This document shows positions 861 through 17,281 of a stretch of 48,036 nt of DNA, piece after piece; within the stretch, counting starts at the first letter, position 1, and every line of letters starts with the position of its first letter. The position numbers were made by a program, and so were the translations under genes. Location: assembly GCA_002687935.1 (NCBI GenBank), contig NZBN01000008.1, positions 1 through 48,036 on the forward strand. The letters run 5' to 3'. Source of the stretch: Methanobacteriota archaeon (lineage in GTDB: Archaea; Undinarchaeota; Undinarchaeia; Undinarchaeales; Undinarchaeaceae). The notes under the pieces were generated by a model, which did not search any database, had not been told where the DNA came from, and worked only from the letters and a program-made list of their open reading frames with translations.

Positions 861-1241
861 TTAAACTCTCTTTATATCTCCTACATCCATAAGACCGCGT
901 TTTAGAAGAAGTATATCTCCTTCACGAATAGGTCCTTTAACATTTCTTTTTACAACGCGCCCTTTGTCTCTTCCGTCGAGAACCTCAGCTCTAACCTGAA
1001 TAATTCCTCCAGTTGCACCAGTTCGTCTCATTATTTCAGTAACTCGTGCAGGAATTGAAGATTCTGCTGCAAGAGGTGCGCCTTCCTGTTTTGACTCTTT
1101 TTTTGAAGTTTTCTTTGATTTTTCTTTTGAAGGTTTTTTAGAGACCTCTTTAGGAGCTTCAGAATCTTTGGAATCTTCCTTTGAGTCTTTTGACTCTTCA
1201 GTGAGTTCCTTCTTTTCAGGCTCGGCCTCCTTCTTCGCCAT
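861..1241 (-). CDS. rps28e: 30S ribosomal protein S28e (eS28) with ~60 aa charged N-terminal extension
   Basis: [12 protein letters not shown]...[30 protein letters not shown]; start codon overlaps the L7Ae stop (TAATG). Confidence 0.93.
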
Positions 1242-1729
1242 TATTCAGATTTTTCCTCTTCAGTGGGTGCTTCAGGTTCTGCAGGTTTTTCTTCTGCTTT
1301 TTCTTCAGCGGGTGCTTCAGGTTCTGCAGGTTTTTCTTCTGCTTTTTCTTCAGCGGGTGCTTCAGGTTCCTTTGCCGGCTTCTTACTTCCTGCCTTTGAG
1401 AGCTCGCTTACAAGGTCTGTAAGTTGCTTCTTACCTTCACCAGCGTCGACAATTGCAACACATGCGGTAGGTACATTGAGGCCTGCTGCCTTTCCAAGCT
1501 CTGCTCTGAATGGAACTCCTATACAAGGAATTTCACGCTCTTTGCAAAGCGGTGTTATGTGAGCCACTACTTCTGGAGGAGAAACATCCTCAGCAAAAAT
1601 GACGAGTTTTGTCTGCTTCCTCTCAATGGCTTTTGTGGACTCATTGGTCCCTTTCCTAAGCTTTCCAGTCTCTGAAACTATGTTTAGAAGACTGTAAGCC
1701 TTATTTACAAGTTCTTGGTTTTCTGTCAT
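1241..1729 (-). CDS. rpl7ae: Ribosomal/RNP protein L7Ae (eL8) with repetitive acidic C-terminal tail; start reassigned from 1759 to ATG at 1729
   Basis: [16 protein letters not shown]...[16 protein letters not shown]...ELGKAAGL; SD GAGGTGA just upstream of ATG 1729. Confidence 0.96.
1265..1369. repeat. 45-bp tandem repeat (2 exact copies plus a 15-bp partial copy) encoding [15 protein letters not shown] in the L7Ae tail
   Basis: GGGTGCTTCAGGTTCTGCAGGTTTTTCTTCTGCTTTTTCTTCAGC at 1265-1309 and 1310-1354, partial at 1355-1369. Confidence 0.95.
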
Positions 1730-1766
1730 ATCAATCACCTCTCTTTCGAGATCAATCACGTGGCGT
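1730..1766 (-). promoter_or_regulatory. L7Ae 5' leader with putative kink-turn overlapping the SD
   Basis: Minus strand UUGA-[UCUC-GAAA-GAGA]-GGU-GAUU: 4-bp stem with GNRA loop, 3-nt bulge, tandem G.A/A.G and U.U pairs; the bulge and GA lie within SD GAGGUGA. Confidence 0.65.
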
Positions 1767-1804: not shown

Positions 1805-3406
1805 CTACTCATGTGTAAAAATGAACTTAATTGGCTTGTCTGACGACTCTACACGTGCGAAACCGACGCGTTCGAACTGAACAATTTCCCCAAGCTTAAG
1901 TTTGGAAACTTCCTTTTGTGCAAGACCTTTGATTGTTTTTCCTGTTTCAGAAATAAGTAATTCTGTATCTACTGCATCAGTGTCAACCCACTGTAATTTT
2001 TTAGTGTCCGCCTTAACTTCATCCGAGTCAAATTCGGCTTTTCCCTTAGTTGTGAGCTTCACATTGAAAAGGTCTTTAAGCCTGAATATTTCCCCCTTTT
2101 TCATTGATTTTGCATCAGCCTTTGGAATGTAGAAAGTTCCTTTAGACTTCACTTCGATTTTCTCAGGAGAGGGAACAAAAAAGTAATGTTTTGTTTTTGG
2201 ACTGAGAATTTTCCTGTTTATTGTGTTTAAAGCATCAATGCTTATTGTTGTACTTCCGGAAGTCATTCTCACCTCCTTGGCAAGACGTTCGAGTGTTTCC
2301 GGAACAATACCGCGACGCTTTATAGCTTTGAGTGTTGCGAGACGTGGGTCATCCCAGCCACTTACCTTGCCGTTGTCAATAAGCTTCTGAATTTCTCTTT
2401 TTGAAGTTGGAGTACCCTCCAGATTTATTCTCGAATACGATATAATATGAGGATTATCCATACCAAGAAGCTCCCTTATTTTGTTCTGCAGTTTATTTCT
2501 TTGCTGAAACTCATTGGAACGGAGGACGTGAGTCACACCACATTTTGCATCTTCTATTGCATTTGCGAAATCATATAAAGGCCAGACTCTGTATTTATTG
2601 CCTTGTAGAGGATGTTCAGCTTCGACGATTCTCATTATAGTTGGGTCACGGAAAGTTGTGTTCTTCGACTTCATATCAAGTTTCAGGCGAAGGCTTGCAC
2701 TTCCCGGCTTGAGAGTAGTCTTCATTTCAGTGAAGAGTTTATCACTCTTTTCAGGAGAGATTCTGCGACATGGACAATTCTTACCGTCATAACGAAGCTT
2801 TCTTGATTTTTCAACAGGACATACGCAAACATAGGCATCGCCTGAATTTATGAGAGCCTCAGCATGTTTATAGAATAAATCAATATCATCAGAATTTCTT
2901 TTTACCTTGTCATATTTTATACCAAGCCATGCAAGATCTTCCTTAATTGCCTCATAATATTCTGTTCTTTCCTTCTCTGGATTTGTATCCTCAAACCTGA
3001 GAATTAATTTTCCGGAATATTTTTGTGCATAATAATGATTGAAAAAGAAGGAAACTGCGTGCCCAATATGAAGATAACCATTAGGCTCAGGTGCAAGTCG
3101 TGTTACAACCTTCCCTTTTACAGCCCCAGGAAGCTCAGGAAGTTCTCGTTCCACCTTCTCCTTTTTCTCGAAGAGTTCAGGTTTTTCCTCTTTTAGGATG
3201 ACTTCCATTTCACCAATACTAAGTTTGTTGGCATCCTTTACAGCTTTTGAAATAAGTTTACGTAAAGTTGGAAGATCCTTCTTTAGAGATTGATTTGAAG
3301 AAAGTGTCTTCCCAAGGACAGCTCCTTCACTTGCCTTTCCTTTATGAAGAAATGCGTTTTCAAGGGCAAAGAGGAAAACATCACGCTCTATTTTTTTGGC
3401 GACCAT
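1805..3406 (-). CDS. gltX: Glutamyl-tRNA synthetase (archaeal type)
   Basis: RLAPEPNGYLHIGHA (HIGH), LRFEDTNP, YDFANAIEDAKCGVTHVLRSNEF, GWDDPRLATL. Confidence 0.97.
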   Translation of the reverse strand: MVAKKIERDVFLFALENAFLHKGKASEGAVLGKTLSSNQSLKKDLPTLRKLISKAVKDANKLSIGEMEVILKEEKPELFEKKEKVERELPELPGAVKGKVVTRLAPEPNGYLHIGHAVSFFFNHYYAQKYSGKLILRFEDTNPEKERTEYYEAIKEDLAWLGIKYDKVKRNSDDIDLFYKHAEALINSGDAYVCVCPVEKSRKLRYDGKNCPCRRISPEKSDKLFTEMKTTLKPGSASLRLKLDMKSKNTTFRDPTIMRIVEAEHPLQGNKYRVWPLYDFANAIEDAKCGVTHVLRSNEFQQRNKLQNKIRELLGMDNPHIISYSRINLEGTPTSKREIQKLIDNGKVSGWDDPRLATLKAIKRRGIVPETLERLAKEVRMTSGSTTISIDALNTINRKILSPKTKHYFFVPSPEKIEVKSKGTFYIPKADAKSMKKGEIFRLKDLFNVKLTTKGKAEFDSDEVKADTKKLQWVDTDAVDTELLISETGKTIKGLAQKEVSKLKLGEIVQFERVGFARVESSDKPIKFIFTHE

Positions 3407-15647: not shown

Positions 15648-16217
15648 TTAGTTTCCTCTGTTTTTATTTGCACCAAGGCTCGGTCTCGATTTCTCAACAC
15701 CATAGCCCTTCTTGTGAAGGCCTCTTCCCCTCTTTCCAGAAGAAGTAAGACCGCGGTAAACACGCTTCTTGTGCTTGTTTGAACATATCCAGTTTATTCT
15801 TGAATCTGCCACTATTTGAGGATGATAAGGATCAACAAGGATTACTTCGTACCATACGTTTTTTCCGTCGTCTCCGACCCAGTAAGAGTTTAGAACTTCC
15901 ATGTTCGGATACTTTCTTGAAACCCTGTTTTCTAAAAGTGATTGTAGGCTCTTGCCCGGAGTAACAAAACGACCGTAGCTTGTCGGCTTCCTTGCAGCTC
16001 TAGGTGCAGGACGCTTTCTGCCTCCTTTGGTCATTCTTGTTCTGACAATAGTATAACCGCCCTTTGCACGATAGCCAAGAGATCTTGCACTATCTATTCG
16101 TGTGGGACCTTCGATTCTTGTGAATCTCTGCTCGGCTCTCCACTTAAGATAGCGCTTCCTCTGAAGCTCAACATTCGGTTTTTTCCATGCCTCCCGCATG
16201 TATTTGTAGTATCCCAT
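15648..16217 (-). CDS. rpl15e: 50S ribosomal protein L15e (eL15)
   Basis: PTRIDSARSLGYRAK, LEVLNSY-like MEVLNSYWVG, WYEVILVDP, RGLTSSGKRGRGL. Confidence 0.98.
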   Translation of the reverse strand: MGYYKYMREAWKKPNVELQRKRYLKWRAEQRFTRIEGPTRIDSARSLGYRAKGGYTIVRTRMTKGGRKRPAPRAARKPTSYGRFVTPGKSLQSLLENRVSRKYPNMEVLNSYWVGDDGKNVWYEVILVDPYHPQIVADSRINWICSNKHKKRVYRGLTSSGKRGRGLHKKGYGVEKSRPSLGANKNRGN

Positions 16218-16267
16218 TTTGTGTCTCCGATTTGCACTCAGCCTGAAGCATCATAGTACGGATAGGT
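16218..16267 (-). promoter_or_regulatory. Structured L15e 5' leader containing a box C/D-type kink-turn
   Basis: Minus strand UCCG-UAC-UAU-GAUGC-UUCAG-GCUGA-GUGC-AAAU-CGGA-G: C-box-like AUGAUG and D-box CUGA, with an outer helix pairing into SD GGAG. Confidence 0.7.
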
Positions 16268-16288: not shown

Positions 16289-16295
16289 TTATAAA
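16289..16295 (-). promoter_or_regulatory. TATA box of rpl15e (divergent from the promoter of ORF 16346, TATAAA at 16318-16323 on plus)
   Basis: TTTATAA on the minus strand. Confidence 0.6.
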
Positions 16296-16345
16296 GCTTT
16301 GGGAGAAGGAAAATATCTATAAAGAAGTAAAACTAAAGGCAGAAT

Positions 16346-17281
16346 ATGATTAGTCTTGAACAACTTGATACATGGGAAAAGAAAGTTCAGAAAGCGATTG
16401 AGGAAGGAAATATTGACAACTCATTTGCAAAAATATTGAAATCTATCAAAAATGTTCAAAAAGCCAAACAGGCCGGACGAGGCTTAAAACATCAGAGACC
16501 TACAGCAGAAATAAGAGAAAGGGCAGAAGAAATTTTTAACAATTTTATTGACAGTTATATAATCAGCGTCCTCGAAAAAGAAGGACAAGACATTGTAAAT
16601 GATGTAATTGGACAGAAAGGTGTGGAAGTCAGAAGTCTTTTCCACAGGAGACTTGTTAATGAATTGAATGATAGGAGGACGGTTTCGACTCAGAACTGTA
16701 TTGATTCACTAAATAGAGTTCAGGAAAGAGCTAAAGAAGAATCTGAAATTGCTGAGAGTTTGAAGTATTACGAAGCGGCTCGTTATATGAATGAAGAATA
16801 CAAGGTAAACATTTGGACTTATATGAAATTTATTGAGAAAGAGCCTGATATAGATTATGAAAGTCTTGAAAACCGCTTCTGGTGGAGAGGTGAAGGCGGA
16901 GTAAGAGACGCTAAGAATCTGAAAATTCTTGAGAATGCTTCAAAGGACAAAAAAATACCAATGAAAATGAGAGAACGTATTCTCAATATTATTAAAGCGC
17001 GAAAGTCAGGACGTGAAAAGCTGGCAATTGCAGAGACAAAGTTGGCGACATCTATTGTAAACAAGCTCTCTGAACTTTTAGAAGCCAGACCCGACATAAC
17101 CGAAAAAGAAGCATTTGACGAATTATTTAACATAGAAGGAATTGAAGAAGACAATATAAGAGAACTTATACGGATGGCCGCACGGAACCTCAGTGAAGGT
17201 GGTGAACGTGATTCAGTTGTATATAGATGTCTTGTAACGTTGTATGGAAGACCTTCAAACAAAAGACTTGTAAAAGAATAG
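16346..17281 (+). CDS. Hypothetical protein, highly charged, predicted helical; no family recognised
   Basis: 311-aa ORF filling the gap, TATAAA 22 nt upstream; no motif recognised. Confidence 0.7.
   Translation: MISLEQLDTWEKKVQKAIEEGNIDNSFAKILKSIKNVQKAKQAGRGLKHQRPTAEIRERAEEIFNNFIDSYIISVLEKEGQDIVNDVIGQKGVEVRSLFHRRLVNELNDRRTVSTQNCIDSLNRVQERAKEESEIAESLKYYEAARYMNEEYKVNIWTYMKFIEKEPDIDYESLENRFWWRGEGGVRDAKNLKILENASKDKKIPMKMRERILNIIKARKSGREKLAIAETKLATSIVNKLSELLEARPDITEKEAFDELFNIEGIEEDNIRELIRMAARNLSEGGERDSVVYRCLVTLYGRPSNKRLVKE

Follow-up and report, generated by a model that had tools for sequence, protein, structure and literature searches.

The gene for ribosomal protein L15e (rpl15e) is preceded, in the genome of a tiny marine archaeon of the order Undinarchaeales (DPANN), by a short RNA hairpin, and the locus raises the question of what this element does, where it comes from, and which protein or proteins it would sense. 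Leaders of ribosomal-protein messages are the main known means of post-transcriptional control of ribosome synthesis, and few of them are understood in archaea; to our knowledge, no archaeal ribosomal-protein leader has a proven ligand except that of L7Ae itself. The analysis was centered on contig NZBN01000008.1 of assembly GCA_002687935.1, and the whole stretch of 48,036 nt that was analyzed is referred to below as the window. All coordinates of the rpl15e and l7ae regions are those of the window, and both genes and their leaders are read on the minus strand.

The rpl15e coding sequence (15648-16217; 189 aa; PF00827, E 1.2e-67) begins with the ATG at 16217-16215 and is the first gene of the string L15e-Rpp30-Pop5-PsmA-SBDS-Rrp4-Rrp41-Rrp42-L37ae, whose members were identified by Pfam and which is the archaeal exosome superoperon. 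The sequence-only reading of this DNA had placed a k-turn at the head of that superoperon, and the position was upheld, with Rpp30, Pop5, PsmA, SBDS, and the exosome genes downstream all supported by Pfam matches. A TATA-like box, CTTTATAA, is located at 16289-16296 on the minus strand, preceded by an A-rich stretch that resembles a BRE, and keeps the same spacing in relatives of the genus; in sister genera, CTTTTTAA is found about 22 nt upstream of the leader element. From the CTTTATAA box, a transcription start near 16266 is predicted, which would put the k-turn hairpin at the very 5' end of the rpl15e message. A scan for bacterial-type promoters and terminators, which is not applicable to archaea, returned nothing useful. 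A second TATA-like box, TCTATAAA, faces the other way on the plus strand, near 16313-16322; the ATG of a divergent 311-aa gene, which has only a weak UPF0147 match, follows after about 26 nt, at 16346. This spacing suggests that the divergent gene is transcribed leaderless, in which case two back-to-back promoters would occupy a common 128-bp spacer.

On the minus strand, the leader reads UCC-GUAC-UAU-GA-U-GC-UUCAG-GC-U-GA-GUGC-AAAUC-GGAG-ACACAAA-AUG from 16262 to 16215, and the k-turn is the 26-nt portion of it that runs from the GUAC at 16259 to the GUGC ending at 16234. Its C helix is formed by GUAC (16256-16259) and GUGC (16234-16237) through the pairs G16259-C16234, U16258·G16235, A16257-U16236, and C16256-G16237; across the order, both partners are replaced in three of these four pairs, and GUGC is GUGU in one metagenome relative (G-C to G·U). 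The bulge UAU (L1-L3; U16255, A16254, and U16253; 16253-16255) is followed by a core in which G1b, A2b, and U3b (16250-16252) face A1n, G2n, and U3n (16238-16240, the UGA of CUGA) as G16252·A16238, A16251·G16239, and U16250·U16240. The core continues into an NC helix of GC/GC with a UUCAG loop (16241-16249; G16249-C16241, C16248-G16242, and loop 16247-16243), the loop being UUCAU in relatives. The 3' end of the k-turn is about 16-17 nt 5' of the rpl15e AUG, and the Shine-Dalgarno (SD) sequence GGAG (16225-16228) lies 5 nt further on, 3' of the C helix and 7 nt 5' of the AUG. The sequence features of a standard (simple) k-turn are all present, namely a 3-nt bulge, an in-register GA opposite GA directly after it, a C helix 5' of the bulge (GUAC/GUGC), and a continuing NC helix (GC/GC). 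The box-C/D-like k-turn that had been claimed for the L15e leader, with its G·A, A·G, and U·U core and its UUCAG loop, was confirmed at every base and, judged by its sequence, is a perfect example of the type.

The same reading had added an outer helix, UCCG with CGGA, that would hide the SD GGAG, and this part did not hold, because G16259 was assigned to UCCG/CGGA and to GUAC/GUGC at the same time; with each base paired once, either the outer helix is reduced to UCC/GGA (3 bp) or the C helix loses a pair and is left with 3 bp. GGA at 16226-16228 could pair with UCC at 16260-16262 as a weak and optional outer helix, and nearest-neighbor energies of -2.3 kcal/mol for the k-turn hairpin and -2.8 kcal/mol with the outer helix indicate that it would add about 0.5 kcal/mol. 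The outer helix showed zero variation inside the genus, had no counterpart in other genera, and was not in the minimum-energy fold of the rpl15e leader. These results bear on the idea of an RNA-only switch, in which UCC(G)/(C)GGA masks the SD and the only part played by the k-turn is to nucleate this pairing. The complementarity is present in the sequence, and UCCG resembles a leftover 3' arm of an ancestral upstream hairpin, described below, such that a stacked helix under the C helix may persist; with one guanosine counted twice, so small a gain in energy, and a helix that lacks covariation and is confined to one genus, we consider such a switch very unlikely. An alternative pairing of the loop CUUC with the SD GGAG, which appeared in the 70-nt fold, was dropped since it is not conserved in other genera.

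The k-turn was not returned by minimum-energy folding of 96 nt or 70 nt, because its non-canonical pairs are not modeled, and neither fold was significant (z -1.04 and +0.36), the 96-nt fold also taking in sequence upstream of the predicted start. The window k-turn has -1b:-1n=C:G, 3b:3n=U:U, and 4b:4n=G:C, a combination for which ion-induced folding is very impaired (PMC5689011), and it is therefore predicted to depend on protein for its folding.

Chance occurrence was assessed with a strict descriptor (a C stem with 4 bp or more, 3-nt bulge, GA, U·U, at least 2 bp, short loop, and GA), which matched 22 sites on both strands of the 666,542-bp genome, against a mean of 22.1 in 20 dinucleotide shuffles. 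The pattern alone is no rarer than chance in this genome. The rpl15e leader site was the sole match outside long ORFs, the other 21 of the 22 falling inside them, and the descriptor thus yielded no second leader with this type of k-turn in the genome. The significance of the leader k-turn accordingly lies in its being the sole match outside long ORFs, in its closeness to the rpl15e start, and in its conservation across the order.

That conservation was determined in 17 Undinarchaeota genomes, 13 of the Undinarchaeales and 4 of other orders. A covariance model built from Undinarchaeales leaders (R1) matched exactly one site per genome, always 5' of rpl15e, in 12 of the 13 Undinarchaeales genomes, and had no match in the 4 genomes from other orders or at 100 further rpl15e loci of archaea. 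The single miss (genome G006; locus L011, 1392-1481) carries an insertion of about 60 nt in the NC hairpin that forms a long extra stem, and its k-turn core is intact; in genome G011, for which the L15e search was negative, the model matched at a contig end with the first rpl15e codons next to it. A second model constructed without the genus of the window (R2) recovered the window's site at the correct place (18.5 bits, E 0.005).

Over the 7 Watson-Crick pairs and 13 distinct sequences, 86.9% of cells were paired compared with 71.2% in shuffles (0/500), double-sided changes occurred in 6 of the 7 pairs (4/500 shuffles), and the covariation score was 0.557 compared with 0.276 in shuffles (0/500) and 0.159 or less in slid controls, all on an alignment that was fitted to the model and whose 13 sequences are related. 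The NC pair 4b:4n covaries as GC, GU, UA, and AU. The two outermost C-helix pairs were unpaired in 5 of the 13 sequences, those in which the C helix abuts an upstream hairpin, and the exact fold in several sister genera (a 2-bp C helix beside that hairpin) is uncertain; a three-way junction, in which UUAGC pairs with GCUAA around the upstream hairpin, fits three sister-genus genomes and does not fit G009 or G006. In the 13 aligned leaders (alignments A2 and A5), the core is invariant at L3=U, G1b, A2b, U3b, U3n, G2n, and A1n; L3 is U in all 14 Undinarchaeales leaders when G006 is included, and the G006 leader also keeps GA opposite GA. Changes within the genus were limited to L1 (U/G), the loop (G/U), and one C-helix pair (G-C to G·U). 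Covariation across related genomes, by which the sequence-only reading could be judged, is present in Undinarchaeales, where both helices covary around a constant core.

A different arrangement was noted in genome G007 (locus L008, approximately 2040-2310, minus strand), where, after the k-turn leader, L15e opens with 12 codons (MGFYKYLAKAWK) and then gives way to unrelated sequence; a second, complete rpl15e, which lacks the leader, begins about 210 nt beyond. Possible causes are a partial 5' duplication, an insertion, and an assembly artefact.

The comparative data already contradict the notion that the hairpin is a chance motif or a box C/D-like small RNA gene with no tie to rpl15e control. 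The pattern does occur at chance frequency genome-wide, and C-box-like and D-box sequences are present: AUGAUGC/CUGA agrees with RUGAUGA/CUGA of the k-turn or k-loop of archaeal box C/D sRNAs at 6 of 7 and 4 of 4 positions, and U:U at 3b:3n and G:C at 4b:4n are shared. The window element differs from those sRNAs in that it is 26 nt within an mRNA leader, its C-like and D boxes are 7 nt apart with only a 5-nt loop between them, and it has no guides (at least 10 nt in the sRNAs), no C'/D' boxes, and no second box pair; the Rfam search of the window returned no sRNA family. With a single covarying site at the same place in 12 genomes as well, we regard this explanation as exceedingly improbable.

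The element was compared with the leaders that are already known for this gene. The sequence-only reading had mentioned a proposed euryarchaeal eL15 leader without deciding whether the window matched it; that family is RF03144, the eL15-Euryarchaeota ribosomal protein leader (Eckert and Weinberg 2020, PMC7247131), with the consensus CCGGauacguCCGG-A-cGG-gAUGU-GGCCc...gGGCU-GAA-CCa-cAAA. When Rfam was run on the window and the genome, neither gave a match to RF03144, even at E <= 10 (gathering score 33.7 bits), and none of the 17 Undinarchaeota genomes reached the gathering score. The element shares its gene, rpl15e, and its position in the 5' leader with RF03144, and also the architecture, both having an outer helix, a 5-nt strand with U-G-N at its end, a hairpin, a short strand that contains GA, and a tail rich in A. 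It differs in the internal loop, which has UAUGA opposite GA in place of gAUGU opposite GAA, and in the absence of the upstream hairpin. In the sister genera, a GCGG-AUACGU-CCGC hairpin stands directly upstream of the k-turn and has the same hairpin and loop as the CCGGauacguCCGG of RF03144; this AUACG-type hairpin is missing from the genus of the window, and some members of the eL15 leader family also lack an upstream hairpin according to Eckert and Weinberg (PMC7247131). The Undinarchaeota of other orders carry the RF03144-type loop. Because the sister genera retain the first hairpin of RF03144 and the relatives in other orders carry its loop, the window element is, by sequence, a diverged homolog in which gAU-GU-G/U-GAA became UAU-GA-U/U-GA and the first hairpin was lost. 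The proposed match thus stands as homology and fails as membership by score.

A Kt-15-type descriptor (C stem, any 3-nt bulge, GU, hairpin, GAA, and C stem) matched 47 of the 147 distinct sequences upstream of rpl15e in archaea, compared with 4.6 in shuffles. The descriptor leaves the bulge sequence free, and this was GAU or AAU in 45 of the 47 and ended in U in all 47. Leaders of this type extend beyond the euryarchaeal name of RF03144 to records labeled Woesearchaeota, Thermoplasmata, and Methanomassiliicoccales (L064, L035, L037, L108, and others), and most of them lie 14-37 nt from the start codon. Four rpl15e loci from marine metagenomes (L093, L094, L096, and L099) were without either type of k-turn and have a conserved ACC/ACU-GA-GGCGAACCGCU-GA-UA about 47 nt before the start, together with a longer conserved leader.

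The loop of RF03144 has a counterpart in the ribosome. Helix 15 of the organism's own 23S rRNA (G000, contig 7) reads ACU-GAA-UCUGUAUCC-GCGA-GGAUGUAGA-GAU-GU-GGU, with 9 bp and a GCGA loop, and the RF03144 loop (NAU-GU/GAA) is identical to it in sequence, being the same 5+3 loop; the archaeal LSU consensus has the same gAA/gAUGu loop. This helix contains Kt-15, in which L7Ae reads a bulged U, a change of that U to G costing about 100-fold in affinity (PMC3553981). Kt-15 was described by Lilley's group as a complex k-turn, with the 2b adenine donated by the strand lacking the bulge, plus a G2n-U-A2b triple (PMC4005666), a geometry that GAA opposite NNU-GU fits, and it is unfolded in ions alone (PMC5061560). 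According to a passage in PMC1808587 that cites Klein 2001, its extruded U is said to occupy a pocket formed by L7Ae and L15e. In sequence, the RF03144 loop is therefore Kt-15 with the terminal loop shifted to the other helix, and in Undinarchaeales the complex loop appears to have been rewritten to a simple, box-C/D-like form (NNU-GA-U opposite U-GA). The window element keeps the flipped-out U at L3, the G1b·A1n pair, and the NAU bulge of Kt-15, and its related leaders have the exact GAA/NAU-GU loop, whereas its own k-turn is simple where Kt-15 is complex, and the helix capped by the terminal loop is the NC helix in the leader and the C helix in the rRNA. Since the loop of the window leader differs from the Kt-15 of its own genome, strict mimicry fails in Undinarchaeales.

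Eckert and Weinberg likened the loop of the eL15 leader to a bulged-G module, with no mention of k-turns or L7Ae, and took L15e alone as the ligand, it being the only ribosomal-protein gene regulated (PMC7247131). Our literature search found no paper linking eL15 leaders to k-turns. Autoregulation by L15e alone would have the leader recognized like the rRNA site, with no role for L7Ae and with the k-turn consensus being simply the shape that L15e needs. Such a scheme agrees with the published assignment and with the tie of the element to rpl15e in every lineage, as in nearly all ribosomal-protein leaders, and the conserved AUACGU loop of the upstream hairpin, which has no L7Ae-binding role, may be an L15e contact. 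It is harder to reconcile with a model rRNA site that is a natural L7Ae site, with an invariant L3=U, which is an L7Ae-specific determinant, and with an order that exchanged the complex loop for the form that L7Ae binds best while the genus of the window lost the upstream hairpin. The sequence also predicts no k-turn folding without an L7Ae-type protein, and L7Ae is present and abundant in function, since the genome also encodes Nop5, fibrillarin, and proteins of RNase P. We judge that L15e acting alone is rather unlikely.

The presumed k-turn-binding partner is encoded in the same window. The l7ae gene (1241-1729, minus strand) is the only PF01248 match in the assembly, which is 86.6% complete, and its start is likely the ATG at 1729 and not the GTG at 1759 chosen by the ORF finder. 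L7Ae of this organism ends in an acidic tail of about 45 aa (1241-1420, minus strand) with a tandem repeat of 15 residues, present twice, and a fragment of the repeat also matches at the start of contig 10. The l7ae leader (1730-1759, minus strand) has a k-turn of its own, composed of GA, a UCUC-GAAA-GAGA hairpin as C helix, the bulge GGU, and GA, with the SD GAGGUGA running across the bulge; its polarity is opposite to that of the rpl15e k-turn, its NC side has only G·A and U·U pairs, and the architecture, with a covarying C helix, was found in 5 genera of the order. A k-turn in the 5'-UTR, next to the SD, allows L7Ae to repress its own mRNA; the protein has bound and folded all k-turns tested, and nop5 is one of the other mRNAs that it represses or binds (Daume 2017, PMC5539422; Huang 2019, PMC6298567). 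The rpl15e leader resembles that system in having a predicted protein-dependent k-turn stem-loop beside the SD, in either of the polarities that occur. It differs in residing on the rpl15e mRNA, in having the SD 5 nt outside the hairpin where that of l7ae is inside, and in that a second protein, L15e, is likely the ligand that is sensed.

Given these properties of L7Ae, cross-regulation by L7Ae alone, the stronger version of the sequence-only reading, was weighed, in which its binding to the k-turn represses rpl15e and so makes the output of L15e depend on free L7Ae. In favor of it, the element comes close to the consensus of box C/D k-turns, of a kind that L7Ae would be expected to bind. What such a scheme leaves unexplained is why only rpl15e has the element, in one copy per genome, and why most archaea use the complex loop specific to Kt-15 and not any k-turn; L7Ae, moreover, regulates itself, and its free level should be buffered. 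This makes control by L7Ae alone distinctly unlikely. The sequence-only reading had proposed that L7Ae acts "rather than or together with" eL15, and of its two options "together" fits better and "rather than" fits worse, because the related leaders copy Kt-15, whose flipped-out U the passage cited above places in the pocket of L7Ae and L15e.

The preferred reading is that the rpl15e leader k-turn is probably a feedback brake on L15e synthesis in which both proteins may take part. The free leader would be poorly structured, its k-turn not folding on its own, and binding of L7Ae would kink it. Surplus L15e could then join the L7Ae-RNA complex, docking as on the ribosome, and the resulting particle beside the SD would exclude the small subunit and block initiation, so that less L15e, and possibly less of the downstream superoperon, is expressed. 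L15e is taken as the protein sensed because the element is unique to rpl15e and because most archaea copy the one k-turn that L15e touches, and L7Ae is brought in on account of the invariant L3 uridine and the switch to a box-C/D-like form. A structure prediction of L15e with L7Ae from Undinarchaeales alignments gave a score of 0.25, the mark being 0.32, which weighs neither for nor against the scheme. We give this mechanism of the two proteins acting in turn about an even chance of being right for the rpl15e leader. Its extension to the whole eL15 leader family, as a mimic of 23S Kt-15 and a two-protein sensor in which L7Ae folds the RNA, L15e is sensed, and lineages such as Undinarchaeales rewrote the complex k-turn as a simple one, is put forward more tentatively, as plausible but somewhat short of even.

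New here are a simple-k-turn form of the eL15 leader, specific to one order and missed by the Rfam model, and the reading of the family as a candidate mimic of Kt-15. For annotation, the consequence is that RF03144 misses the Undinarchaeales entirely. If the eL15 leader is a copy of Kt-15, a direct test of its ligand and mechanism comes within reach, for which two small recombinant proteins and an RNA of 40 nt are needed. In the Undinarchaeales form, a complex k-turn has been exchanged naturally for a simple one between homologous elements, a case that can inform the rules by which k-turns fold and are recognized, and the rewriting, if it is as proposed, would be a natural demonstration that complex and simple k-turns are interchangeable. 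Were the two-protein sensor to prove true, the family would represent ribosomal-protein feedback that needs a second, different ribosomal protein, and L15e synthesis in these archaea would be under the cooperative control of two ribosomal proteins that are neighbors on the ribosome.
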